From: Escherichia coli
Lineage (GTDB): Bacteria; Pseudomonadota; Gammaproteobacteria; Enterobacterales; Enterobacteriaceae
Assembly (NCBI RefSeq): GCF_003334405.1
Contig: NZ_QOWM01000018.1
DNA: 64,000 nt
Direction: 5' to 3' (one strand)
Part shown: positions 4,855-64,000 of the stretch, piece by piece
Layout: each line of letters begins with the position of its first letter
How positions within the stretch are numbered: position 1 is the first letter of the stretch
Made by a program: the position numbers and the translations under genes
Notes under the pieces: model-generated
The model's database searches: none
What the model saw: only the letters and a program-made list of their open reading frames with translations
Told to the model about the DNA's origin: nothing

Positions 4855-4889
4855 CCCCGCCCCCGGCACTAAACCCGGGGGTATTTTTA
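4855..4889 (+). terminator. rho-independent terminator-like hairpin after traF
   Basis: CCCCCGG-loop-CCGGGGG stem followed by TATTTTTA. Confidence 0.5.
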
Positions 4890-4906
4890 TATTCAGTTTA
4901 AATAAC

Positions 4907-5491
4907 ATGATGAAACCACGTTCCTCTTATTCAAAGACAGCATTCATTCTTTTATTTTCTGTTTTCCTGGTAGCTGCAGTGACAAAAGCAAAAAGCTCGC
5001 TTCCCGATATCACCCTGGAACAGGCAAAAGAAATTAATGCTGATAACACCGTTATTTTCCTTTTCCGCCATGGAGAACGTTGCGACCGTTCAGATATGCC
5101 CTGCTATTCGGATAAGAGCGGAATCACTATTACCGGTACAGAGAAAGCACAGCAGGAAGGTATTAAGTTCGCAACAATCTTCAGTAAATATGATATTTAC
5201 TCCAGCAATGCAGTAAGAACCATACAAACTGCAAAATTCTTCTCCGGTAAAGAACCCGTCGTTATGGACAGTTTATCAGACTGCAATAATGATCTTTATA
5301 AGACGCTTGAATCAATCGCAAGAGAATCTCATAAAAGGAACATAGTAATAATGACACATAATCATTGTTTATCATTTCTGGCCAGAGACAGGCTCGGCAA
5401 GAAATTCAAACCGGCGTACCTTGATGCCCTGATCATGCATTACGATGGTACCCGGCTCATACTTGACGGAAAATACAACAAAGAGGCATAG
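4907..5491 (+). CDS. traG: secreted histidine-phosphatase-superfamily protein in tra operon
   Basis: signal peptide; RHG catalytic motif FLFRHGER; name by position. Confidence 0.55.
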   Translation: MMKPRSSYSKTAFILLFSVFLVAAVTKAKSSLPDITLEQAKEINADNTVIFLFRHGERCDRSDMPCYSDKSGITITGTEKAQQEGIKFATIFSKYDIYSSNAVRTIQTAKFFSGKEPVVMDSLSDCNNDLYKTLESIARESHKRNIVIMTHNHCLSFLARDRLGKKFKPAYLDALIMHYDGTRLILDGKYNKEA

Positions 5492-5885
5492 AGGATATTT
5501 GAATTTACATAAATTCTGATATACTCAGTAAGATACAAGAGTGTACGGGCACATGTGCCTGTCTGAATTGCAGGTTATCCGGACGAGGGCCGGGAACTGT
5601 TTCAGGGACAAGCGCCGGTACATTCGATTCATAAATCGTCGAGTCATCCATCATGGATCGATTCGGCGCGGAGCGTTAAAGATTACGCTCATATTCGTTT
5701 TATGTCTGACGACACATCAACCAGCCAGTATCAGGAATAATCACCTTCAGTAAACTATGAGGCTATTTACCTGGCCACACTGGCATTTATTTCCGGTAAC
5801 GCAAGTATAGCCGGAAACAAACATCATCCTGTCTGTACCGGAGCACCGGTATATCCCATTCTGATTTAACTGCTCAGGAATTATT

Positions 5886-6344
5886 ATGAACCGTATTATA
5901 CCTGCGGGGTGTCTTGCCGCCCTTTTTCTGGCTGGCTGCAACTCCCCTTCTCAGCATACTCCTGTTCCGCGTAACTACGGTGCTGCCTCTGATGTGGCGG
6001 TTACCCGGCACACTCAGTACACATTATGGGACAAAGGTGTGTTTTCCGGTCAACTTCCGGTTTCAACGGGGTCTCATCTTCTGACAGCTAACAGCGATCG
6101 CCTTTCCTTTGACTGGGAAGGTGATGCGATTGAATTACTGAACGAACTGGCCAGAGTCAGGGGGATGCAGTTTAACTACAATGGTGTCCGCCTGCCGTTA
6201 CCAGTCAACCTTCACGTCCGGGATATGACGTTTTCCAATACGTTGAGACTTATTGAAGCCCAGACAGCCTGGAGAGCAACAATCCATCAATATCCGGGCC
6301 TGTTACAGGTCAGCTTCATGCAGCCGGAGAACCGGAAAAAATGA
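5886..6344 (+). CDS. traH: conjugal transfer lipoprotein
   Basis: lipobox LAGC after signal peptide; name by position. Confidence 0.6.
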   Translation: MNRIIPAGCLAALFLAGCNSPSQHTPVPRNYGAASDVAVTRHTQYTLWDKGVFSGQLPVSTGSHLLTANSDRLSFDWEGDAIELLNELARVRGMQFNYNGVRLPLPVNLHVRDMTFSNTLRLIEAQTAWRATIHQYPGLLQVSFMQPENRKK

Positions 6345-45318: not shown

Positions 45319-47277
45319 TCAGGCGGCATCAGCCAGGTTAGCGGTGTGTTCAGTGGCATCCGTCTGTGGACGTGGCGCACACATCCAGCCAGGCACCCAG
45401 CGGTTGTCTTTCATATGGAACTCTGCATGTTCAGCCGCATCGCCTTTCTTCATTTTCTCCGCGTCCCGTGCGGCACCGGACAGTCCGGCCTCATTCAGGG
45501 CTGCGATAATCTGCGGCTTTTTCAGGTGTCCGAAGAAGTTTGCTTTTGTCGGCTGCCACCAGTCGCGCATGTGAAAACCGATGGCGCTCTCCAGCGTGTC
45601 CAGCGGGCTGCGTGACGTGTGACCACACTCACGGGTCTGGACACCGTTAAGGCTGCACGCGGTGCAGAAACTGAGCAGGGATAACAGCACCTCCTGACTG
45701 AGTGACAGGAACGTCGTCATGTCCCGTGACCATCCCTCCGGTAACAGGGCCGCAAGACGGGCTTTTTCTGCCATCATCGACAGGAATGCGGCACCTTCCT
45801 TCCCTGACGGCGCATCGCTGGTCAGCGAATAATGTTTACATTCCAGGCTGATTTGTGCTGGTTTACTGTACGCTCCGCTGCCAAACACATTCAGGCAGAG
45901 CGTCCACGCCAGCAGTGCCAGAGATTTGTCCGGTTGCTGCATCAGTGCCGCCTGGACTGCCAGCGTGCGTTCGGAAGACATTTTCGTCAGCAGTGGCAGA
46001 CTGATTTCCTCCACTGATGCTTTCTCCTGCACCTGTTCCGTGCGGTCAGCGTCGTCAGCAGCGTCATCTTCACTGCGCAACTGCACACCACGCTGGACAC
46101 ACACATTACCGTAACGCCAGGACACCACCACACCGCTTCCGGCACGCATCTCCGGCGTCCACGCCCTGACCTTCGCCATGCAGCGCATCAGCTTCATTTC
46201 TGCTTCCAGCAGGTCGGATTCCTCACACTGGTTTTCCAGCGCGTCGTAACGCGTCATCAGTTCGTTCAGGCGTTCTTCTTCCGCCTCCGTCAGCACCGCT
46301 TCCGGCTCCGGCAGACAGCGGTATGTTCCGGCATCCTCACGGCACTCACCGACAGGCTCCATGCGCCCGGCGCACCATTCCCAGCCTTCGGCTTCCCGAA
46401 GGTGTTCAGCGACAGCCTGGAGTTTTTCCAGCAGGGCAGCATCGAGTGCCACGCAGTCCACATAGCCACCCTCGTCGTCGCTGAACAAATCGGTGCGCAG
46501 TTCATCTGGCGAGAAGGCATCAGCCCCCACGAAGCGGAATTTACTGTTCCCTGCCACCGCCACTTCACTTTCGGTCACCAGACGACGAATGGTCTGCACT
46601 TCCGGTTTACCGCCCCATCCCGACTGACAGGCGGCTTCAAACACCTGCACCTGACGCGCGGTGTCGTTCTCCAGCGCCAGCGCTTGACAGTGTTCGGTGG
46701 TGATGCGGTCTTCTGCCAGCGCATCGAGGATGACAGGCGCAAGGTCTGCCAGTTTCAGCATTCGCTGAACGTGGCGGGGTGAATAGCCCAGCAGGTCGCC
46801 AATCTGCGCAGATGTTTTGCCTTCCTGCGCCAATGCGCGGAATCCGGCAATCTGTTCGGCAGGGTGCATATCCCGACGATGACCGTTCTCGGTCATCGAT
46901 GCGGCAGTCGCCAGTTCCTGCGGGATGACCTTCACACGGACAGGCCAGTCAGCCGGAAGGATGTTGCGCTCTGCCAGCATGTTGAGTGCAGCCAGTCGGC
47001 GACCACCTGCGGCGACACCGTAACGGTCACCAGGCAGGGTATGCACGACCAGATTCTGCAACAGGCCAACGCCCTTAATGGACTCAGCCAGTTCGCTGAC
47101 GGACTCCACAGAATACGGCACCGTGCGCACATTCAGCGGTGATTTAATCAGTGAGGCCAGCGGCACGCTCACTTCCTCCGTCTGCGCCAGCAGGGCAGAC
47201 AGGGCAGTTTCCTGCGTTTTTGCAGATTTACGGCTTGCTTTGCGGGTGGTTTCTGGTTCACACTTCGTTACAGGCAT
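45319..47277 (-). CDS. ParB-like nuclease-domain protein of leading region
   Basis: 652 aa from ATG 47277; ParB N-domain motif VAAGGRRLAALNMLAE. Confidence 0.65.
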   Translation of the reverse strand: MPVTKCEPETTRKASRKSAKTQETALSALLAQTEEVSVPLASLIKSPLNVRTVPYSVESVSELAESIKGVGLLQNLVVHTLPGDRYGVAAGGRRLAALNMLAERNILPADWPVRVKVIPQELATAASMTENGHRRDMHPAEQIAGFRALAQEGKTSAQIGDLLGYSPRHVQRMLKLADLAPVILDALAEDRITTEHCQALALENDTARQVQVFEAACQSGWGGKPEVQTIRRLVTESEVAVAGNSKFRFVGADAFSPDELRTDLFSDDEGGYVDCVALDAALLEKLQAVAEHLREAEGWEWCAGRMEPVGECREDAGTYRCLPEPEAVLTEAEEERLNELMTRYDALENQCEESDLLEAEMKLMRCMAKVRAWTPEMRAGSGVVVSWRYGNVCVQRGVQLRSEDDAADDADRTEQVQEKASVEEISLPLLTKMSSERTLAVQAALMQQPDKSLALLAWTLCLNVFGSGAYSKPAQISLECKHYSLTSDAPSGKEGAAFLSMMAEKARLAALLPEGWSRDMTTFLSLSQEVLLSLLSFCTACSLNGVQTRECGHTSRSPLDTLESAIGFHMRDWWQPTKANFFGHLKKPQIIAALNEAGLSGAARDAEKMKKGDAAEHAEFHMKDNRWVPGWMCAPRPQTDATEHTANLADAA

Positions 47278-47335
47278 AATCATCCCCTTATAATTGCTTA
47301 TGTCCTGCCGGACGTTCGCGCGTCCGGCACCTCTC

Positions 47336-47608
<273 letters not shown>

Positions 47609-47626
47609 TTATCACAGTCAGGCCAG

Positions 47627-48157
47627 TCAGAACGGGATATCGTCTGAAAACCCGTAATCGTCACCCTCCGGCGGTTGCGGCTGAGGCTCCGGCTGCGCGG
47701 CCTTTCGTCCACGGCCTTTCGTTTTCGCGCCACCTTTTTTCGTGGCAGCCTCCGGCTGAGGCTGACCGCTGAACTGTGGTGTGCCGTCCGGCTGAGTCTG
47801 AGTTCCTGCGGCACGTCCCAGCATCTGCATGGTGCCCGTGGTTTTAACAAGGATTTCGGTGACGTAGCGGGTGACACCGTTGTTGTCCTCCCAGCTACGG
47901 GTGCGAAGCTGGCCTTCGATGTAGACCTGCGCGCCCTTGCGCAGATATTCACCGGCCACTTCCGCGAGCTTGTCGAACAGCACCACGCGGTGCCATTCCG
48001 TCAGTTCCTTAATTTCTCCCGTCTGTTTGTCGCGCCAGCTTTCTGACGTGGCCACCTGCAGGTTTGCCACTGCGCCCCCGTTGGGGATGTAACGGACTTC
48101 CGGATCATTGCCCAGACGCCCGACGAGGATGACCTTGTTGATACCACGTGCACTCAT
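47627..48157 (-). CDS. ssb: plasmid single-stranded DNA-binding protein
   Basis: 176 aa; OB-fold N-terminus [23 protein letters not shown], Gly/Pro/Gln-rich linker, acidic tail DDIPF. Confidence 0.9.
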
Positions 48158-48224
48158 AAGAACCTCCTGACTGAAAGATGTGAGATAAACCGGATACCGG
48201 CGACGGGACGTTCATGTGCCCCTT

Positions 48225-48728
48225 CAGAGGAGCGAAAGCTCCTCCTGCCGTCCACTTCACAGGGGTTTCTCCCCGCAGTGGACCTTTCCGATGGGGGCCC
48301 GTTTACCGCCTCACGGGACAGCTGTCCGGGGGCGGACGCAAAATTTTTTGCCGGGTTCATGGCTAAAAATTTTGTGGCCGGTGCATCTCACCCTGGACAG
48401 ATGGAACGGGAGGGGGTTACGTCTGCCCCCCGGAAAGGTCCACAGCGGGGAAACAGGCCGCAGAGGTGGCGGCAGGAGGGAAGACTGCTGCGCCATCAGG
48501 CGCAGTTTCCTCACACACCGTCAGGTGTGCAGGGAGCGCAGGTTACGGCGCGACAGAGGCGGCGCGACCGGAACGGTCGCTGCAAGCCCGGGTTTTCACG
48601 CATCGGACCGTAGCGACAGCCCGAAACCGCGCCAGCGGGTTCGGCGGAGACTGGCGGGTGCGCAAGCAGCTGCCTGTCGGAGTCGGGCCTGACGACCGGA
48701 TGCCGCCAGGCAGCCGGGAGCCGAAGTG
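48225..48728. promoter_or_regulatory. structured repeat family 1, copy C (Frpo/ssi-like single-strand promoter candidate) 5' of ssb
   Basis: ~500 bp near-identical to copy B. Confidence 0.6.
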
Positions 48729-54311: not shown

Positions 54312-54560
54312 ATGATCCGCATTGAAATTCTTTTCGACCGCCAGAGCACAAAAAACCTCAAATCAGGCACACTTCAGGCGCTACAGAATGAAATCGAACA
54401 ACGTCTGAAACCACACTACCCGGAAATCTGGCTGCGTATAGACCAGGGCAGCGCCCCGTCTGTATCTGTCACAGGAGCCCGCAACGACAAGGATAAAGAA
54501 CGTATCCTGTCTCTGCTGGAAGAAATCTGGCAGGACGACAGCTGGCTGCCTGCAGCATGA
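54312..54560 (+). CDS. impC: DinI-family SOS regulator ImpC
   Basis: 82 aa, MIRIEILFDRQ ... DDSWLP, DinI-like pattern. Confidence 0.75.
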   Translation: MIRIEILFDRQSTKNLKSGTLQALQNEIEQRLKPHYPEIWLRIDQGSAPSVSVTGARNDKDKERILSLLEEIWQDDSWLPAA

Positions 54561-54994
54561 GTACCGTTTATCACCGTCCGGCTGACCCTTCAGGCGATGA
54601 CAGTTACGTGCGACCGTTGTTTGCCGATCGTTGCCAGGCCGGTTTTCCTTCGCCTGCCACTGATTATGCTGAGCAGGAACTGGATCTGAACAGCTATTGC
54701 ATCAGCAGACCTGCAGCCACCTTCTTTCTGCGCGCCAGCGGTGAATCGATGAACCAGGCTGGCGTGCAGAATGGTGATCTGCTGGTAGTGGACAGGGCCG
54801 AAAAACCACAACACGGGGACATCGTTATCGCTGAGATCGACGGTGAGTTCACCGTCAAACGACTGCTGTTGCGCCCACGCCCGGCACTGGAGCCGGTTTC
54901 AGACAGCCCGGAGTTCCGCACACTGTATCCGGAAAACATCTGTATTTTTGGTGTTGTCACTCACGTGATACACAGGACGCGGGAGTTACGCTGA
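54557..54994 (+). CDS. impA: UmuD-like translesion synthesis subunit ImpA
   Basis: 145 aa, LexA/UmuD-type S24 peptidase motifs (ASGESM, GDLLVVDRA). Confidence 0.8.
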   Translation: MSTVYHRPADPSGDDSYVRPLFADRCQAGFPSPATDYAEQELDLNSYCISRPAATFFLRASGESMNQAGVQNGDLLVVDRAEKPQHGDIVIAEIDGEFTVKRLLLRPRPALEPVSDSPEFRTLYPENICIFGVVTHVIHRTRELR

Positions 54995-56268
54995 TGTTTG
55001 CACTGGCTGATATCAACAGTTTCTACGCCTCATGTGAAAAAGTTTTCCGCCCGGACCTTCGCAACGAACCGGTCATCGTACTCAGCAATAACGATGGCTG
55101 TGTGATCGCGCGCAGCCCGGAGGCAAAAGCCCTTGGCATCAGAATGGGGCAGCCCTGGTTTCAGGTGAGACAAATGCGCCTGGAGAAGAAAATACATGTA
55201 TTTTCCAGCAATTATGCGCTGTACCACAGCATGAGCCAACGGGTTATGGCTGTTCTGGAGTCGCTTTCTCCCGCAGTTGAGCCCTACTCAATTGATGAAA
55301 TGTTCATTGATTTGCGGGGGATAAATCATTGCATCTCTCCGGAGTTTTTTGGTCATCAGCTCAGGGAACAGGTAAAGAGCTGGACAGGACTCACCATGGG
55401 GGTGGGCATTGCGCCTACAAAAACGCTGGCTAAAAGTGCACAGTGGGCAACAAAGCAATGGCCACAGTTTTCCGGAGTGGTCGCGCTGACGGCAGAAAAC
55501 CGTAATCGGATCTTGAAGCTACTGGGGCTGCAGCCAGTTGGTGAGGTCTGGGGAGTAGGACGCAGACTGACGGAAAAGCTGAATGCGCTGGGTATTAACA
55601 CAGCACTGCAGCTGGCGCAGGCTAACACGGCATTCATCCGGAAAAACTTCAGCGTCATTCTTGAGCGTACGGTACGCGAACTCAACGGCGAGTCCTGCAT
55701 ATCCCTGGAAGAAGCACCACCGGCAAAACAGCAGATTGTCTGTAGTCGCAGTTTTGGTGAACGAATCACAGACAAAGATGCCATGCACCAGGCTGTTGTT
55801 CAGTATGCAGAGCGGGCCGCAGAGAAACTACGTGGGGAGCGTCAGTATTGCCGGCAGGTGACGACATTTGTACGGACATCACCCTTTGCAGTAAAAGAAC
55901 CCTGTTACAGCAATGCCGCTGTGGAAAAGCTTCCATTGCCCACACAGGACAGCCGGGACATTATTGCCGCCGCATGCAGAGCCTTAAACCATGTCTGGCG
56001 TGAAGGGTACCGCTATATGAAGGCAGGTGTCATGCTGGCTGATTTCACACCATCGGGTATAGCGCAGCCGGGATTATTTGATGAAATCCAGCCCCGTAAA
56101 AACAGTGAAAAGTTAATGAAAACACTCGATGAACTGAACCAGTCGGGAAAAGGGAAAGTGTGGTTTGCGGGGCGAGGAACCGCCCCTGAATGGCAAATGA
56201 AACGGGAAATGTTGAGTCAGTGTTATACAACTAAATGGCGAGATATTCCCCTGGCCAGGCTGGGTTAG
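54994..56268 (+). CDS. impB: UmuC-like Y-family DNA polymerase ImpB
   Basis: 424 aa, MFALADINSFYASCE N-terminus typical of UmuC/DinB. Confidence 0.85.
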   Translation: MFALADINSFYASCEKVFRPDLRNEPVIVLSNNDGCVIARSPEAKALGIRMGQPWFQVRQMRLEKKIHVFSSNYALYHSMSQRVMAVLESLSPAVEPYSIDEMFIDLRGINHCISPEFFGHQLREQVKSWTGLTMGVGIAPTKTLAKSAQWATKQWPQFSGVVALTAENRNRILKLLGLQPVGEVWGVGRRLTEKLNALGINTALQLAQANTAFIRKNFSVILERTVRELNGESCISLEEAPPAKQQIVCSRSFGERITDKDAMHQAVVQYAERAAEKLRGERQYCRQVTTFVRTSPFAVKEPCYSNAAVEKLPLPTQDSRDIIAAACRALNHVWREGYRYMKAGVMLADFTPSGIAQPGLFDEIQPRKNSEKLMKTLDELNQSGKGKVWFAGRGTAPEWQMKREMLSQCYTTKWRDIPLARLG

Positions 56269-56269
56269 T

Positions 56270-56686
56270 TCAGTCATCTCCGAACATATTTTCAGCGTTT
56301 CTTCTGGTCTGGTCTTCACCGTCATTTCTCGACAGACTCTGCTCTGTAAGAGGAGTACTGCAATCCACAGACGTATGGAGACCAGATTGTTTTTCCAGTA
56401 ATTCAAGCAATTTCTTTTCAACCGAAAAAGCACCTGGTATTACGCTGGAAATCACCTTATTAATATCATCCAGAGTCGTATTTTCTGTCAGTAACTCCGA
56501 TATCAGCAAAGGAAGACGTTTATCTATAGCTGCAAACGCCGCACCAGTAACTAACATCGCGCGCATGAAACGTCCCCGCTCCTTCAGTTTTTCATTTGCA
56601 ATGAGCTCATCTGCTATCTTATCTCCTGTCCGTTCATCCGGGAAAAGTTCAAATGAGCAGCGTCTGGATTTATTTTCATCACTCAT
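56270..56686 (-). CDS. partition adaptor (ParR/StbB-like) downstream of actin-like ATPase
   Basis: 138 aa, operon partner of ParM-like gene. Confidence 0.5.
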   Translation of the reverse strand: MSDENKSRRCSFELFPDERTGDKIADELIANEKLKERGRFMRAMLVTGAAFAAIDKRLPLLISELLTENTTLDDINKVISSVIPGAFSVEKKLLELLEKQSGLHTSVDCSTPLTEQSLSRNDGEDQTRRNAENMFGDD

Positions 56687-57659
56687 TAGTCACACCACCT
56701 TTCATTTTTATCATTCCCATGACTAAATCAAACTGCGGGGATGAGCTCAGATAAAAGCGCTCATCAGGAACCTTAGTCAGGTTCTTCACAGCCTCGGCCA
56801 CAATTTCAGCCCCACCACCAACACACATTACATGTGTATAGTCGGTGAAACGGCTGATGACATCATTAACTCGTTTAATAAGCAACTTCTGCCGTTCATT
56901 GATAACATTAATGATAGACTCACGCTGTTCAGCATTATAAATGCGACGGGAAAGGTAGTCAGGTTCATTACGGTGCACAATGATATTGTCAGCCTGGAAT
57001 GAGCTCACTCTTGTATTAGCATGTACAGCCATCTGTTCCTTAACCCCGGATGTAATCAGGGACACGCCGATATTCGGATCACACCAGGTTTTTGTAATCC
57101 CTGTCATTTTGCTACGAACATGCGACACATCAAGAGTTGTACCACCGAGATCTACGATCAAAAGGGATTCATCATCCTCAAGCCCCGCAAGAACACTGAA
57201 ACCAGCGGGAATACTTTCAGGAAGAACGGAAACACTGCGAATAACAAATGCATCACTCCCCTGCACCCGTACTTCACGCATCACATTTTTTTTCTTTCTT
57301 TCAATGTTTTGCTTATTTTTCTGATTGTTGGCGTCAAGGTATTCAGAGATCGGCAATGTGACGATGACATCAACAGGCTGCGCTTTCAGGCCGGTCTGCT
57401 GTAGCGCATGCTGAATGGCCACAACATTCACATCACTGTACTGATAGCGTGTTTCAGTCGTTACGACAGCATCAGCACTTAATGGATCAAATGAAAACTT
57501 CTCGCCGTCGATCTCGTAATTAGCCGGAGCAGCATCATCCAGTAAACTAAAAGACCATTCCGGTTTAAAGCTGTTAGGGCTGATTAACGTTTTCACGTCA
57601 CCATCCTCCAACCAGGCAAGTTTAATGTTGGTAGAACCATCATCAATAAAGATTTTCAT
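56679..57659 (-). CDS. actin-like partition ATPase (ParM/StbA family)
   Basis: 326 aa from ATG 57659 (MKIFIDDGSTNIKLAW), actin-fold phosphate motifs IDLGGTTLD. Confidence 0.75.
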   Translation of the reverse strand: MKIFIDDGSTNIKLAWLEDGDVKTLISPNSFKPEWSFSLLDDAAPANYEIDGEKFSFDPLSADAVVTTETRYQYSDVNVVAIQHALQQTGLKAQPVDVIVTLPISEYLDANNQKNKQNIERKKKNVMREVRVQGSDAFVIRSVSVLPESIPAGFSVLAGLEDDESLLIVDLGGTTLDVSHVRSKMTGITKTWCDPNIGVSLITSGVKEQMAVHANTRVSSFQADNIIVHRNEPDYLSRRIYNAEQRESIINVINERQKLLIKRVNDVISRFTDYTHVMCVGGGAEIVAEAVKNLTKVPDERFYLSSSPQFDLVMGMIKMKGGVTNE

Positions 57660-57754
57660 AACCAGTCTCCGTTGCTCATAAACAAATAGAAAAAACAAAC
57701 ATACTTCATACATGCAATGTATATTCAATTATAATGAAAAAACGGTCTTTCTGA

Positions 57755-57895
57755 AAGGACAAATGCAACATAAAAACACGATAAATTGCATGTACATTGT
57801 ACACACAACTTTAAGACCAGAGGAAATCATAGATACAAAAACATTATGAAGGTTATATGTGATACATAAATGCAATATAAAAACATCGTGAACAT
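57755..57895. promoter_or_regulatory. candidate centromere/operator upstream of parM-like gene (direct repeats AAATGCAAYATAAAAACA)
   Basis: repeats at 57761-57780 and 57868-57888 plus inverted TTGCAT copy at 57786-57791. Confidence 0.45.
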
Positions 57896-58072
57896 CATGG
57901 TTCAGGTTAAGGGAAAAGGAATGAAATGGTGAAACTGAGAGGAAAGGAAAGCGGTGACGAATCATGTCACCATAAACAGAAAGATGTCTAATGGGGACTC
58001 TTTAGGTACGTGAAGAATCCCCATAACGCATTTAAAAGACACACATCAGATACCCTTAAGGTATCCGATAGT

Positions 58073-58381
58073 TTATTGACCTATTGCACCATCACGTTCA
58101 AGCTTCTCTCTTATAGCCTCAATAATATATGAGCTAAAATCCAGAGATGTTTTACTGGTCGCTTTAAGTTCCGCATGAGCTTCAAAATACGACAGCGGTA
58201 TGGCCTTAAGATTCTTAGCCTTCGTCCTGGCAGCCACGGGACGACCTGAAACTTCCTCTGCACCTTCATTTGGCTGAGACGGGGCTGTTGCTGTTACGGC
58301 AGAAGAAGAAGTTTGTAATCTGGCAGAATCCACCAGGTTTTTCAGTTTTTCAGCCTGTGCACTAAATTTCGCTTTGCTCAT
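58073..58381 (-). CDS. small partition/centromere-binding protein (ParG-like)
   Basis: 102 aa, downstream partner of ParA-type ATPase. Confidence 0.5.
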   Translation of the reverse strand: MSKAKFSAQAEKLKNLVDSARLQTSSSAVTATAPSQPNEGAEEVSGRPVAARTKAKNLKAIPLSYFEAHAELKATSKTSLDFSSYIIEAIREKLERDGAIGQ

Positions 58382-58467
58382 GAGATAACCCAGGATGTTT
58401 GTTAGATACTTAAAAGATATCCATTAAAAGCCCAAAGGATACTATATGGATACCCAATAGACACACC

Positions 58468-59112
58468 TTACTGTTTGTTATTTTCAATCAGATGATTGAT
58501 TTCTTCGATCAGGGCAATAACTTCCTTACCTCCTGCCGAATAGCGCCCATGAACAGACTCAGTGATTCCCATCCCAGTCTCAATGACATCCTCAAATTCT
58601 GCACGAGCAGAAATGCGGCTCTTCATCAGCTTCAGATGTTTGAACGATGGCAGGATTGCATCAAGCTTAGGGAATTTCTTCTTGTTAGGATTAACTTTAC
58701 AGAGATACAGGTGAGCAGTTATATCGGTCCCCATGATAGAGCTGATTTCGTCCAGTACTCCATCAAAATGCATCAAACCAATACGTTCAGTCAGGGAGTC
58801 TTTTGAAGGAACAATAACGCAGTCTGCAAAGGCAATCGCAGTACGGGTAAGATCTGAGTCAAATCCCCCACAGTCAATAAGTAACGTCTTATCGCTGTTC
58901 TTGTAGGGAGTCATAATTTCGATTAACTCATCCACTGTTTTGGGTACTTTCACGGAAATTTCTTTTCCTTCAGGTCTCAGCCCCAGAATGATAGAAAGCC
59001 CGGTATGAGTATCCAGATCAACTGTATCAGACTTCATTTCACCAACAATGTTTACGGATGAAGTTGTCTTACCCACACCACCTTTGGGATGCGTATTAGC
59101 AATAACAGGCAT
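58468..59112 (-). CDS. parA: ParA/ParF-type partition ATPase
   Basis: 215 aa from ATG 59112; deviant Walker A KGGVGKTT. Confidence 0.75.
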   Translation of the reverse strand: MPVIANTHPKGGVGKTTSSVNIVGEMKSDTVDLDTHTGLSIILGLRPEGKEISVKVPKTVDELIEIMTPYKNSDKTLLIDCGGFDSDLTRTAIAFADCVIVPSKDSLTERIGLMHFDGVLDEISSIMGTDITAHLYLCKVNPNKKKFPKLDAILPSFKHLKLMKSRISARAEFEDVIETGMGITESVHGRYSAGGKEVIALIEEINHLIENNKQ

Positions 59113-59291
59113 AGTGTATCTCCAGAATCCACATGTAATACCCATAAAGACCCCATAAGACACCTTTCGGATATCCAAGAGGTACTCAATAGATGTTTTT
59201 TTACTCTATACCGGTCCTGCATGTCAACAGAATATGAAATACCGATAATATATCCATGAGATATCCGAAAGGGATTTAAAAAAGTCAGAGC

Positions 59292-60071
59292 TTATGGAAT
59301 TCTTTTGAGCATAGACACCGCATCGGACTCAGGCATCGAAAACTGCACCCGGTGCCGTGCAGCCACATCCAGTGCAAACACCTTCGTGTAGACCTCCGTT
59401 GAGCTGATGGACTTATGCCCCATCAGGCTCTGCAGGACCTTCAGCGGTATACCGGCATACAGCATGTGCATCGCATAGGAATGGCGAAACGTATGTGGCG
59501 TGACCGGAACAGAGAATGTCACACCATCAGCGGCAGCGGCGGCAACCGCTTCCCCAATCCAGGTCCTGACCGTTCTGTCCGTCACTTCCCAGATCCGCGC
59601 TTTCTCTGTCCTGCCTGTTCGTTTATTACGCCGTTCCATGGGGATTTTCAGTGTGGCCACCATCGTCTGCAGCTGGCTGACGTACCAGGCGTCGGAGAGC
59701 GGAACCAGCCGGTGAGTCTGCTGACCGGCGGGCATCCTTCCTGCCGTCCTGGCGGCTTTTTCGGTCCGCTGCTTCAGAGTGGCCAGCTGCACAAACGGAT
59801 ACGGAGGCGTGAGCGAAAAATCCCCCCGCGTCAGCGCCAGTGCTTCATTAATGCGTGCACCGGTGTTCCACAGTGTGGCCAGCAGCATCTTGCGGCGCAG
59901 ATCCGGGACGTAATGGAGCAGGGCGCTCACTTCAGGGGCCAGCAGGTATTTTGGCAGTTCATCATGAACCATCGACATCTGGCGGAGTGCCAGCGCTGCC
60001 GGATAATCGATGGCAACAGGAAGCTGAGCGGCATCCCGGGCATGGTGTATCGGTGCCGGCAGGTGCTGCAT
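59292..60071 (-). CDS. tyrosine site-specific recombinase (multimer resolvase, XerD/ResD-like)
   Basis: 259 aa from ATG 60071; R..HxxR..Y motifs (HTFRHSYAMH, STEVYT). Confidence 0.75.
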   Translation of the reverse strand: MQHLPAPIHHARDAAQLPVAIDYPAALALRQMSMVHDELPKYLLAPEVSALLHYVPDLRRKMLLATLWNTGARINEALALTRGDFSLTPPYPFVQLATLKQRTEKAARTAGRMPAGQQTHRLVPLSDAWYVSQLQTMVATLKIPMERRNKRTGRTEKARIWEVTDRTVRTWIGEAVAAAAADGVTFSVPVTPHTFRHSYAMHMLYAGIPLKVLQSLMGHKSISSTEVYTKVFALDVAARHRVQFSMPESDAVSMLKRIP

Positions 60072-60072
60072 A

Positions 60073-60486
60073 TCAGTGTTCACTCCACGGGGAAACGTCG
60101 GGCAGGTTTTCCACAACACGGTACTTTCCCGGATAACGGAGCTGGTTACCGCCACGCGTCCAGACGGTGACAACAAAACCCCCTCCCTGGTTGTTTTCGG
60201 GGAGCAGGCGATCGCACTGCTCACTCAGCATGTGGATCACGAACGGCGCATCGCTGCCGTCTTCAAATACCAGTTCCAGCGCATCGCGGCCGTGCAGCGT
60301 TCCCTTACTGATGATGACGTACTCAGCTCCCCGCATCTCCCTGAGTAAATGTTTTGCCGCATCCGGGACAAGCAGCCTGGCTGCGCCGGCATTCCAGCTG
60401 AGGTAGACATATCCGGCCTGCGCCTGTACAGACTGCCAGTAATCCGTTCTGGCGACAGCCTGACCTTCATTCTCAATAAAAAACAT
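60073..60486 (-). CDS. hypothetical protein co-transcribed with recombinase
   Basis: 137 aa from ATG 60486 with AAGGAG RBS; stop abuts recombinase start. Confidence 0.5.
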   Translation of the reverse strand: MFFIENEGQAVARTDYWQSVQAQAGYVYLSWNAGAARLLVPDAAKHLLREMRGAEYVIISKGTLHGRDALELVFEDGSDAPFVIHMLSEQCDRLLPENNQGGGFVVTVWTRGGNQLRYPGKYRVVENLPDVSPWSEH

Positions 60487-60569
60487 GGGTGACTCCTTTT
60501 TTCTTTTCCGGGCAGGGACGGTCATGCGATAACGTCATCCATCATCACTGCCCTTACCGTCACGCCGTC

Positions 60570-60591
60570 TGATAACATCATGCCGTTATCA
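60570..60591. promoter_or_regulatory. candidate recombinase core site (TGATAAC-N8-GTTATCA)
   Basis: perfect 7-bp inverted repeat with 8-bp spacer ~45 bp upstream of the recombinase operon. Confidence 0.35.
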
Positions 60592-61053
60592 TCATCACCA
60601 TGATAACAAGCATCCATATAACCACGCCGTTAAATTACCGGAGAACCGTTTCCGTCAGATCCGACTTTCCGGAATATCACAACTTTCCGGAAGTGTACCA
60701 CGCTGAGGAAATAATCATATCGCTGTTTTCCGCCCCTGCGCGGCGCATCACAGGTCAGGGAAACAACACAACATATAGTGTCATAAGCAGCTGAATGTGG
60801 CACTACATGTTGTATTTACAGGAGGTAGCGTTGTGCGGAGATAGAGGAAGATCCGTGACCGCCGGAAACCGGATCTGCGCGGAAGAAAAGACGCAAATGA
60901 TATGATAATAAAAAACACACATAAAATCATATCAGATATGATTTTCATCATTGATGATGAAACCATATCTGATATTATCAGAAATCAGGAGCACACAAAT
61001 CATGCAGGATATTATTTTTACCTGTCAGAACATTATCAGATGGAGCGTGCAGG

Positions 61054-61311
61054 ATGGATGAAGAAAGGGGGTTTTCACTCAGTTATGAACAACTGACCCG
61101 GTTTGCGGAAAAACGCATCCGGGAATGCAATCTGGACAGCCAGGGCGCGATTTATCTCTGCGAGTCAGCCAAAGCCGGAGCCGTGCTGATCTTCTGGCAT
61201 GAACTGGCCATAAATGGCTATGCCTCAATGAATGCCATAAAGAGACAAGAGATCATTGACGCCGACTTTCAGCGCCTCAGAAACCTCATCTGGCCGGAGG
61301 ATGACAGGTAA
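61054..61311 (+). CDS. hypothetical protein
   Basis: 85 aa, preceded by overlapping 19-codon uORF 61002-61061. Confidence 0.45.
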   Translation: MDEERGFSLSYEQLTRFAEKRIRECNLDSQGAIYLCESAKAGAVLIFWHELAINGYASMNAIKRQEIIDADFQRLRNLIWPEDDR

Positions 61312-61901
61312 TGACCCAGAGCCGCCGACCGTCGCCACTGCAGCGGAGAGTGCTGATTGTGCTGGCTGCCCTTGATGAAAAACGGCCGGGCCCCGTGCTG
61401 ACGCGGGACCTGGAACGGGTGCTGGAGCGAAGCGGGGAAGCCCCGGTCTACGGGCCAAACCTGCGCGCCTCCTGCCGTCGTCTGGAGGATGCCGGCTGGC
61501 TGCGTACCCTGCGCGCCCCGAACCTGCAGCTGGCAGTGGAGCTGACGGACGCCGGCCGGGCCGTGGCACAGCCTCTGCTGCTGGCAGAACAGGACCGCAT
61601 CCGGGCAGAACAGCGTGCGGCAGAAGTCGTCGTACTGCCGCTGGTCCCGGCAGCAGGTCTGCCCGCAGGCGGCACTTCTGCCACTGATCTGGCGGTGGAG
61701 CTGAACGGCATGACGTATCAGGCCTGCCGTGGGGATTTTGTGGTGCGTCTCGACGGCAGCACCTGTCTGCAGTTATGGAATAAAGAAGGCAGAGTGGTAC
61801 GCCTGGAGGGCGATCCGCTGGAAGTGGCGCAGTGGCTGCAGGCCTGTCACGATGCCGGAATGGAGGTTCGTGTACAGGTTAATGAAAGCGTCACCCCGTA
61901 A
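61311..61901 (+). CDS. hypothetical winged-helix-like protein in GC-rich island
   Basis: 196 aa, TAATG overlap with upstream ORF; much higher GC than flanks. Confidence 0.5.
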   Translation: MTQSRRPSPLQRRVLIVLAALDEKRPGPVLTRDLERVLERSGEAPVYGPNLRASCRRLEDAGWLRTLRAPNLQLAVELTDAGRAVAQPLLLAEQDRIRAEQRAAEVVVLPLVPAAGLPAGGTSATDLAVELNGMTYQACRGDFVVRLDGSTCLQLWNKEGRVVRLEGDPLEVAQWLQACHDAGMEVRVQVNESVTP

Positions 61902-61966
61902 AAACATGCCAGCACGGTTTACACGTTATCCCATGGTGGCAGCCGGTTAACTTTCCTGCGCCACCA

Positions 61967-62284
61967 GTGGAAAGAGGCCATGCACAGTTAAGTCTTGATG
62001 TTAATCTGCGGCTGTTTTTTGCAATGGCAATCATTGTCTGTGGTTACGGCTATGTAATTATTTATATTTTTATAAAAAATACGCTCGTCTATATTTTAAC
62101 GTTGCCTGGGCTTACATGTCTCAGTTCTTTATTTTCTTTCATGGCATTTAAAGATAACAATATGTGGGTTGATTCTCCTGATTTGACGTTATCAGTAATA
62201 ACAGGCTCTTTTGCGGCTACAGTTATCTTTTATATGTTCTATTTTTTGAGTTATTCCTTTTATCGGATGGGGACGGATGAATAG
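61967..62284 (+). CDS. hypothetical small membrane protein
   Basis: 105 aa, hydrophobic, AT-rich. Confidence 0.35.
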   Translation: MERGHAQLSLDVNLRLFFAMAIIVCGYGYVIIYIFIKNTLVYILTLPGLTCLSSLFSFMAFKDNNMWVDSPDLTLSVITGSFAATVIFYMFYFLSYSFYRMGTDE

Positions 62285-62505
62285 AAAGGCCGATGACCTG
62301 CATTTAAGTAAGCGGCTAACCGTATTGATATTTACTGAGAGCTCAGTTCAACTCTCCAGCGATAACAGATCGCGTTCCCTTCCATGCCGCGCCAGCAGCA
62401 TGGAAGGCGGCATATTATCAACCATGAAAAATCACCTGGCGGAAAATTTACTAATTTATGGATTGTGATATTATTAAAGAGTAGAACAAGCCAGCTGAGG
62501 TATTT

Positions 62506-63099
62506 ATGGGAAAAAATCAGGAAGAAAGGAAGCCCCCCATCATTGTGGTGAAAAAACGTCGTACTTTTTCGCCACCTTCCTTATCCGAAAAAACAGATAT
62601 TATCGCACCTGCATTTACTGAACAGGCGGCAGAATTCCCCCCCGTCGGAATAAATTCATCTGCCGTCGAAAAACATATCCCCGAAGCACCAGCCCGGAAG
62701 AAGAAAAAGAAAAGACATCGTTTCCCACGTCCCGCCCACTGGACCCGTGAGTATACTCACGAGTGCGTGGAAAAAATAAAGACCCTGTTTCCTCATCTTC
62801 GTGCTGAAGGCGGTGGATTTATTCCCCTGAAAATTGGCATCAGCAATGATATTTCGGCATTTCTGGCAGAAAACCCGGATACAGAACTGTCCATGGACGA
62901 ATGGTTCTGTGCAGTGTCCTGCATCACCTCCCGCCGCGTATATCTGCAGCGGACCTCTGTCGCCGGCGTCCCTCGTTATGGGCTGGATGGTCATCCCGAT
63001 GGGCAGGTCTCAGAAACTGAAGCACAGAGTGCTGTTCAAAGACTGGCGATAATAGAACAACGGTGGCTCAGGATGAAGGAACGGCAGACTGAGCAATAA
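62506..63099 (+). CDS. ProQ/FinO-domain RNA-binding protein (FopA/FinO-like)
   Basis: 197 aa; Lys/Arg-rich N-terminus then FinO-like pattern (TLFPHLRAEGGGFIPLKIGISNDISAFLAEN, RRVYLQRTSVAGVPRYGLDGHPDG). Confidence 0.55.
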   Translation: MGKNQEERKPPIIVVKKRRTFSPPSLSEKTDIIAPAFTEQAAEFPPVGINSSAVEKHIPEAPARKKKKKRHRFPRPAHWTREYTHECVEKIKTLFPHLRAEGGGFIPLKIGISNDISAFLAENPDTELSMDEWFCAVSCITSRRVYLQRTSVAGVPRYGLDGHPDGQVSETEAQSAVQRLAIIEQRWLRMKERQTEQ

Positions 63100-63380
63100 A
63101 CATTTCAGATAACATCATGACATTGTGTATCAGAGTCTGCTTACAGACTCATGGATGCCACCAAAGGCTCATCAGATGTAAGGCAGAAGCGACGTAACTG
63201 CCTTTTGAAAGGAAAAAAGCGACCGCAAGGATGCAATGGATATCTGCCGCATACTGAAATAAAGTAACAAAAAAATCACCACAATCACGGGGGCTTCCTT
63301 CCTGTACTCAGGCCATACCCCCCGCCCGGATAAATTTCTCAATCAACAATACAATAAAACTGTGGATAATATCATCATGA

Positions 63381-63989
63381 TTAACGCATAATTACCCGTG
63401 ATTCTTTCCTGGTAACGTAAGTACAGTTATCCGGAACCTCCTCCATAATAAAAGACATGGCTCCAATTTTTACATTACTGCCTATTTTTACGTTAAGCCC
63501 GATAATACACGTATGGGCACCTACATCGACATTATCACCAATAACGATATAATTCTCTCTGCTGTCAGATTCCTTTTCGCCAATGGTCGTATTCTGCCGT
63601 ATAATCACATTCTCACCGATCTTTACATTACCGTGAATGACGACACCTGAATGGTGGGGCAGCACGAGTCCTTTACCAATCTGCGCCCCCAGGCCAATAT
63701 CACATCCATACTTTGCCATAAGCGCATTTTTTATCTTGATCGCACATTTTCGTTGTTTTTTATTCCCCGATATATACATTTCATTAGCCAGACGCCACCA
63801 CAGAAGAAAACCTCTCTGCCTCTGCATACCGTTCCTGATAAGCCGGTGAAAAACAAACTTATCCCGCATGATAACTTCTGCTTTCCAGTATTCCAGAAGA
63901 TGACGTTTTTTTCCTGATAATAAAAATGTACCAATATGGATATAAGAAATAGGATTTTTTATCAGCATACGCAAATTTTCAGAAAACAA
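63381..63989 (-). CDS. hexapeptide-repeat acyl/acetyltransferase (left-handed beta-helix)
   Basis: repeated [LIV]G.N..IG hexapeptides (VVIHGNVKIGENVII, IVIGDNVDVGAHTCIIGLNVKIGSNVKIG); AT-rich; possible internal start at 63869. Confidence 0.6.
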   Translation of the reverse strand: MFSENLRMLIKNPISYIHIGTFLLSGKKRHLLEYWKAEVIMRDKFVFHRLIRNGMQRQRGFLLWWRLANEMYISGNKKQRKCAIKIKNALMAKYGCDIGLGAQIGKGLVLPHHSGVVIHGNVKIGENVIIRQNTTIGEKESDSRENYIVIGDNVDVGAHTCIIGLNVKIGSNVKIGAMSFIMEEVPDNCTYVTRKESRVIMR

Positions 63990-64000
63990 TGAATACAGAT

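Follow-up and report, generated by a model that had tools for sequence, protein, structure and literature searches.

The stretch of DNA analyzed here (the window; 64,000 nucleotides of contig NZ_QOWM01000018.1 from Escherichia coli) probably carries two independent and complete plasmid partition cassettes in tandem at 56270–59291, within the conserved stability block resD-yefA-yegA-parM-parR of R64-type IncI1 plasmids. The first cassette consists of the genes for a ParM actin-like ATPase and its ParR-type adaptor. The second, assigned to type Ib, consists of yefA, which encodes a small Walker-type ParA ATPase, and yegA, which encodes a candidate centromere-binding protein. Arrays of short repeats with a period of 11 base pairs (bp) occupy all three spacers around yefA and yegA. 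Both cassettes, as originally predicted, are present and complete. They had been described as lying back to back; both are on the minus strand and are arranged head to tail.

The segment at 56200–59400 was compared with the plasmid records in PLSDB. Matches appear in 4,146 plasmids, at least 80% of the segment is covered in 1,076 of them, and the top identity is 99.9%. The matching plasmids are mostly conjugative plasmids of the IncI type from E. coli and Salmonella hosts. The same block is found at 45383–48225 of R64 (NC_005014) with 99.9% identity; the gene order and flanks are alike, with resD upstream and convergent impB downstream, and there is no sequence-level difference. In the record of pS124, which uses the R64 gene names, the order is yedA, resD, yefA, yegA, parA, and parB, followed by the convergent genes impB-impA-impC. 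The minus strand of the window carries all of the genes from parB through yedA, and the plus strand carries impCAB at 54312–56268. Because the block is nearly identical to that of R64 and has the same order and neighbors, the region is the known stability region of the classical R64-type IncI1 backbone. The parAB genes of R64 are present in 48% of 460 I-complex plasmids (PMC10286972). In the records for R64 and other IncI1 plasmids, YegA is named either "hypothetical protein" or "GroEL" and the repeats are left unannotated.

The ParM/ParR Cassette

The parM gene (parA in R64) is located at 56679–57659 on the minus strand and encodes a protein of 326 amino acids. The ATG start codon is at 57659 and is just preceded by the sequence GGAG. 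When ParM was compared with the PDB sequences using phmmer, the solved structures of R1 ParM (1mwk and 4a62) were matched with an E-value of 1e-103 over residues 1–317 of 326. The protein is 52% identical to ParM of R1/R100 and 64% identical to ParM of IncL/M plasmids, and the product of 56679–57659 is labeled ParM in RefSeq. The parR gene (parB in R64) at 56270–56686 on the minus strand encodes a protein of 138 amino acids and shares 8 bases with the end of parM. ParR matches the Pfam family PF10784 (Plasmid_stab_B; StbB/ParR) with an E-value of 1.1e-27 and is 35–46% identical to ParR of IncL/M and IncF relatives. An alignment with these relatives shows conservation of the C-terminal motif T-R-x-N...F-x-D-D. 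The full-length match to R1 ParM and the PF10784 match of ParR bear out the earlier assignment of a ParM-like ATPase with an adaptor to 56270–57659. Judged by its sequence, the first cassette is a standard type II system.

A candidate parC is located upstream of parM at 57705–57886 (minus strand), where repeats surround a promoter-like site identified by a consensus scan. The direct repeats previously noted in this region are real. An 18-bp direct repeat appears at 57761–57778 and 57868–57885 with 17 of 18 positions identical, and such a repeat arises in 1 of 300 dinucleotide shuffles of 57660–58072. The promoter-like site, with a −35 hexamer TTCAGA from 57755 and a −10 hexamer TATAAT ending at 57728, scores 10 of 12. 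The sequence TGTTTTTRT appears three times, at 57770–57779, 57835–57844, and 57877–57886. Four TTGCAT cores are found at 57712, 57763, 57786 (inverted), and 57870; the full 64 kb contains 37 TTGCAT sites on both strands. In the IncL/M relative, similar T-rich GTATTTTTCT iterons flank the promoter on both sides. The parC of R1 consists of ten regular 11-bp iterons (comparison sequence L013), whereas the 18-bp repeat, the T-rich 9-mers, and the TTGCAT cores of the R64 region are distributed over approximately 180 bp. The region is called a candidate parC because this layout is less regular than that of R1. ParR is expected to bind the candidate parC repeats around the parM promoter, which would both repress the operon and generate a complex that caps the ParM filaments. 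The filaments would then push sister plasmids apart.

YefA, YegA, and the Phased Repeat Arrays

The yefA gene at 58468–59112 on the minus strand encodes a small Walker-type ParA ATPase of 214 amino acids. A deviant Walker A sequence, KGGVGKT, is found at residues 10–16. YefA fits the type Ib form of ParA in this motif, in a length within the range of about 200–230 amino acids, and in having no N-terminal DNA-binding domain. The NCBIfam model ParA_partition is matched end to end with an E-value of 1.6e-14 and a score of 53.9 bits, which is under the curated cutoff of 180, and the Pfam matches to MipZ, AAA_31, and CbiA are weak. The ratio of nonsynonymous to synonymous substitution rates (dN/dS) for yefA is 0.047 relative to the Klebsiella homologue, a value at which the coding sequence is read as being under strong purifying selection.

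The yegA gene at 58073–58381 (minus strand) encodes a candidate centromere-binding protein of 102 amino acids, for which structural models give a helix at the N-terminus, then a disordered linker, and a ribbon-helix-helix at the C-terminus. No match to YegA was obtained in Pfam or NCBIfam, the Pfam scan giving only an insignificant match to DUF3950. A profile search of the PDB sequences returned nothing up to an E-value of 10, and Foldseek returned nothing with the monomer model. Membership of the ParG family (PF09274) was rejected, as the ParG profile was not matched in the Pfam scan, and a relationship to ParR was rejected at a profile–profile probability of 0.1%. Clustering at 50% identity divides the small YegA family into 66 clusters. 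In the alignments the N-terminal segment is conserved, the linker is variable, and the C-terminal 45 residues are conserved. In the AlphaFold model of the monomer, two helices follow an extended segment, and the predicted local distance difference test score (pLDDT) is above 90 in the C-terminal part. Since dimerization is required for a ribbon-helix-helix to form, the C-terminal domain was modeled as two copies fused by a flexible linker, and this approach was applied to 36 family members. The dimer model of YegA, which is an artificial single-chain fusion, has a predicted template modeling score (pTM) of 0.83 and contains the strand-helix-helix twice. The C-terminal domain thus models as a ribbon-helix-helix dimer. 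Because this fold model comes without a match to the ParG family, YegA is assigned a ParG-type architecture and not ParG membership. The original prediction of a Walker-type ParA with a ParG-like partner at 58073–59112 therefore stands for the ParA and, at the level of the model, for the architecture of the partner; it fails for the ParG sequence family. In many NCBI records the YegA homologues of about 100 amino acids are named "molecular chaperone GroEL". There is no similarity to GroEL, and the label looks like a propagated annotation error.

The motif GGATAYC had been reported in the spacers around yefA and yegA and is present at each of the four locations given for it. In the 64-kb window 32 sites are found on both strands, of which 6 are within the three spacers. 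The related hexamer RTATCY appears on the gene strand 7 times in 338 bp of spacer versus 0.47 expected (P = 7e-7 for a motif picked post hoc). The GGATAYC sites are units of arrays phased at 11 bp, with the gene-strand core GTATCY, in all three spacers. The self-similarity at a lag of 11 has a z-score of 5.0 upstream of yefA (59113–59291), 3.2 in the spacer between yefA and yegA, and 2.4 downstream of yegA. The observed values were reached by 0 of 500, 0 of 500, and 4 of 500 dinucleotide shuffles, respectively. The motif had also been described as occurring in both orientations. This holds for one inverted pair at 58048–58066 and for the palindromic GGATATCC, which account for the impression; nearly all of the units share one orientation.

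Upstream of yefA the units are divided into two arrays by a stretch that holds the hexamer TTGACA (59222–59227). The distal array at 59234–59270 (minus strand), identified from its layout and a weight matrix, has three phased units (CGGATATCT, TGGATATAT, and CGGTATTT). The proximal array at 59113–59187 (minus strand) has approximately six phased units that extend up to the yefA ribosome-binding site, with weight-matrix matches at 59133 and 59155, and is a candidate operator. A perfect inverted repeat of 13 bp pairs 59163–59175 with 59260–59272. The array between the genes, at 58383–58466 on the minus strand, consists of 7–8 direct units with the core GTATCY and fills the 86-bp spacer, where the lags of 11, 22, and 33 are the top three. 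Downstream of yegA, the 11-bp phasing defines an array at 57985–58070 (minus strand) with three clear units (CGGATACC, GGGTATCT, and GTGTGTCT) and degenerate ATGGGGA units. The first two units of this array form a terminator-like hairpin at 58044–58070 with 12 pairs and a T-rich tail. An imperfect palindrome with arms of 24 nucleotides that are 75% complementary lies between the cassettes at 57984–58031. The sequences ATGGGGA and TCCCCAT within it are similar to degenerate units in the arrays of the Klebsiella homologue.

Four diverged cassettes were used for comparison, from a Klebsiella IncFII plasmid (L006), Yersinia (L007), and two other Klebsiella plasmids (L008 and L009). The identity of YegA across these cassettes is 39–72% in the alignment. 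Phased arrays are found at the same three places in all four, and the lag of 11 exceeds all or nearly all shuffles in 11 of the 12 spacers. The array between the genes is present in L006–L009 (z = 4.2–5.8) and in the more distant member L019, in which GATATC units appear upstream and between the genes. Universal occurrence of this array in the family was rejected, as distant members with spacers of 17–30 bp are without it; the feature is therefore limited to a subgroup. The array core is GTATCY in R64, GTRTCY in L006, GTATWY in L007, GGAWTCC in L008, and GTACAT in L009. R64 and L006 have nearly the same core and an identical predicted DNA-contact strand of YegA, and both the strand and the core differ in L007, L008, and L009. 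The joint change of core and predicted contact strand in three loci supports the binding of the array units by YegA. With a weight matrix derived from L006 alone, the top 3 matches in the window are all in these spacers, the two best being at 58045 and 58034. Nine or ten of the top 40 matches, depending on the boundary, are within approximately 350 bp of spacer, nearly all on the gene strand. The occurrence of phased arrays at the same positions in the homologues supports the earlier suggestion that the GGATAYC motifs are candidate operator or centromere sites, and the arrays around yefA and yegA probably act as a centromere.

In the proposed mechanism, YegA dimers would bind the GTATCY hexamers at 11-bp spacing through the C-terminal ribbon-helix-helix and, because the hexamers are 11 bp apart, successive dimers would be located on one face of the DNA. 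Occupation of the array from the promoter-like stretch to the yefA ribosome-binding site would lead to autorepression. The arrays upstream of yefA, between the genes, and downstream of yegA would all contribute to one centromere complex. For the N-terminal part of YegA, which is conserved, the proposed function is to stimulate the ATPase activity of nucleoid-bound YefA and thereby to position the plasmid.

The ParA-YegA pair is found without ParM/ParR in other plasmids. Its occurrence alone elsewhere indicates a self-contained module. In L006 the order is a resD remnant, yefA-yegA, and a umuC homologue. The remnant is an unannotated fragment at 2253–2469, upstream of the yefA homologue, that is 72% identical to resD of the window; it points to joint movement of resD and yefA-yegA, followed by the decay of resD in L006. 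Since resD-parM-parR is found alone in IncL/M plasmids and yefA-yegA alone in L006, R64 joins two modules that are found singly elsewhere. At 79–5309 of L016 and L017 a pair of the YegA family is flanked by a P1 RepL-like gene on one side and by a hok/gef gene with a Rep3 initiator on the other. A gene with a P22 antirepressor domain is nearby, and the setting may be that of a phage-plasmid.

Known Partition Systems and Alternative Explanations

The first cassette resembles ParMRC of R1/NR1 in its ParM, which has the identity and full-length structure match given above, in a ParR of the same Pfam family, and in a centromere candidate located upstream around the promoter. The closest studied relative is the ParA/ParB system of the IncL/M plasmids pCTX-M3 and pOXA-48, which is of the ParM/ParR type, with ParM 64% and ParR 35% identical. 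The IncL/M locus also has resD upstream, 51% identical to resD of the window, and similar T-rich iterons flanking the promoter. It differs in that parM directly follows resD, with no yefA-yegA between, and in that a nuc gene follows parR. The system is required for the stable inheritance of pOXA-48 (PMC12365149), and the centromere of pCTX-M3 is upstream of the first gene (PMC8125031).

The layout of two adjacent cassettes on one enterobacterial plasmid is shared with the double par locus of pB171, in which par1 is of type II and par2 is of type Ib. The type Ib half of pB171 has repeat arrays upstream and downstream of the operon, and the two pB171 operons are transcribed divergently from a parC1 region that they share. 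The cassettes of the window differ from these in being in tandem with separate repeat sets. Both halves of the pB171 double locus are said to be active, in work attributed to Ebersbach and Gerdes from 2001. The yefA/yegA cassette is similar to ParF/ParG/parH of TP228 in the small ParA, the small partner, and the modeled fold of YegA. ParG of TP228 is flexible in its N-terminal part and has a ribbon-helix-helix at the C-terminus, and the repeats upstream of the operon double as the operator. YegA differs in having no sequence match to ParG and in hexamers at 11-bp spacing instead of tetramer boxes at approximately 8 bp. There are, moreover, three arrays around yefA and yegA, one of them between the genes.

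The IncI plasmid pESBL has a type Ib system next to impB, for which partition was shown experimentally and parS consists of GATAACAA octamers (PMC7602700). The ParA/ParB(Hp7)/parS system of pESBL is like yefA/yegA in adjoining impB in an IncI backbone, in its partner of approximately 100 amino acids, and in having arrays both upstream and downstream. In contrast, ParA of pESBL is 24% identical to YefA, the partners are dissimilar (BLASTP E = 0.77), the GATAACAA octamers have an 8-bp spacing, the genes overlap, so that no array lies between them, and ParM/ParR is absent. Assignment of the window to the pESBL type was rejected from the partner E-value of 0.77 and because no GATAACAA is present in 57900–59300. 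In pESBL-EA11 (NC_018659; L003), two GATAACAA arrays with mostly 8- or 16-bp spacing are found at 4873–4978 and 6046–6094, downstream and upstream of parA-parB. The parAB genes of R64 have been described as present in pESBL with 100% conservation (PMC10286972). The records examined show otherwise: in pESBL (pESBL-EA11, 4994–5919) the ParA is different, being 24% identical to YefA, the partner is unrelated, and ParM/ParR is absent.

Several points weigh against two independent, active cassettes. With two systems on the same plasmid, one of them may be redundant or silent, and the repeats upstream of parM are unlike the regular iterons of R1 parC. No canonical yefA promoter was found in the upstream consensus scan. 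The TTGACA hexamer at 59222–59227 is without a good −10 hexamer at 16–18 bp, the promoter assignment is weak, and yefA may be transcribed by read-through from resD. The site downstream of yegA may be structural, as its two best units form the terminator-like hairpin. Transposon sequencing on I-complex plasmids used pESBL and pMS7163B, which have other par systems (PMC7602700, PMC10286972). A functional study of yefA/yegA was not found in the searchable literature, outside of which are subscription papers, including the R64 genome paper.

It is unlikely that only ParM/ParR partitions the plasmid and that YefA/YegA is regulatory or accessory (for example, a repressor and ATPase for resD multimer resolution or for other positioning), with the arrays serving only as operators. 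The position of resD directly upstream of yefA on the same strand, the resD remnant ahead of the Klebsiella homologue, the recombinase genes near other members of the YegA family, and the operator-like location of the proximal array just upstream of the yefA start codon all fit such a function, and the papers on I-complex plasmids name only ParM/ParR as the R64 partition system (PMC10286972). However, the ParA-YegA pair is found without an adjacent recombinase in Yersinia, K. quasipneumoniae, and metagenomic plasmids. Operators need no arrays between or after the genes, and it is those arrays that are the most regular in the homologues. The standard type Ib layout combines a small ParA with a ribbon-helix-helix partner and flanking arrays, as in pESBL. 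It is highly improbable that the GGATAYC sites are not bound by a protein and reflect chance in AT-rich spacers, a terminator hairpin, or part of a ResD recombination site. The 11-bp phasing is above that of the shuffles in all three spacers, the weight matrix from another plasmid recovers the same sites, and most units are direct repeats that are incapable of forming hairpins. The arrays are also kept in place in the homologues with the core changed in three of four, including loci without a nearby resD. These results stand against the 12-pair hairpin and T-rich tail of the downstream pair, the choice of the motif after the sequence had been viewed, and the proximity of the upstream arrays to resD.

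Two further explanations accept both cassettes as true partition loci. It is rather doubtful that one of them is a redundant passenger kept by linkage. Relatives with a single system are known, namely, resD-parM-parR in IncL/M, yefA-yegA in the Klebsiella plasmid L006, and a different type Ib pair in pESBL, and deletion of par in pESBL alone barely reduced stability (PMC7602700). The small loss is attributed to compensation by conjugation and toxin-antitoxin systems. Points against redundancy are the intact two-cassette block in 1,076 plasmid records (top identity of 99.9%), the strong purifying selection on yefA, and the reportedly active halves of the pB171 double locus. As a tentative alternative, YefA/YegA could represent a distinct type Ib lineage with a three-part centromere, including the array that fills the space between the genes, that cooperates with ParM/ParR rather than duplicating it. 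One system could, for example, space the plasmids over the nucleoid and the other push sisters apart. The YefA/YegA units are spaced at one helical turn, as are the ParR iterons of type II systems, and not as the 7–8-bp units of omega, ParG, and ParB of pESBL. Two independent, complete cassettes in tandem remain the preferred reading.

Flanking Features and Significance

The resD gene at 59292–60071 (minus strand) encodes a tyrosine recombinase with Xer-type NCBIfam matches and is annotated as resD or as a site-specific integrase. It is likely the multimer-resolution gene of the block and is directly upstream of yefA on the same strand. Between the cassettes, a terminator-like hairpin at 57952–57972 (minus strand) has 7 pairs, of which 4 are G-C, followed by a T-rich tail; it is a pattern match only. 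At the other end of the block, a single base separates the stops of the convergent impB (plus strand, ending at 56268) and parR genes (minus strand, ending at 56270), and no terminator-like structure was found between them (56268–56270) by the consensus scan. An Rfam scan of 55800–60800 gave only a chance snoRNA match. Beyond resD, the segment at 61225–61901 switches to a high G+C content unlike the flanking backbone and has long overlapping open reading frames on both strands. One of these, at 61311–61901 on the plus strand, would encode 196 amino acids rich in Arg, Ala, and Pro. The sequence from 60400 to 64000 is approximately 97% identical to other E. coli plasmids, in which the open reading frames are annotated as hypothetical proteins.

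The sequence of the region and most of its biology are already known. What is new is modest, namely, an uncharacterized type Ib family whose three arrays are helically phased; in addition, the common database error in which YegA is called GroEL is corrected. The biology is expected to be conventional and the gain incremental. Among E. coli and Salmonella of human and livestock origin, IncI1 plasmids are major carriers of resistance genes of the extended-spectrum β-lactamase (ESBL) and AmpC types, and the mapped arrays are defined targets for work on binding, incompatibility, and plasmid curing.

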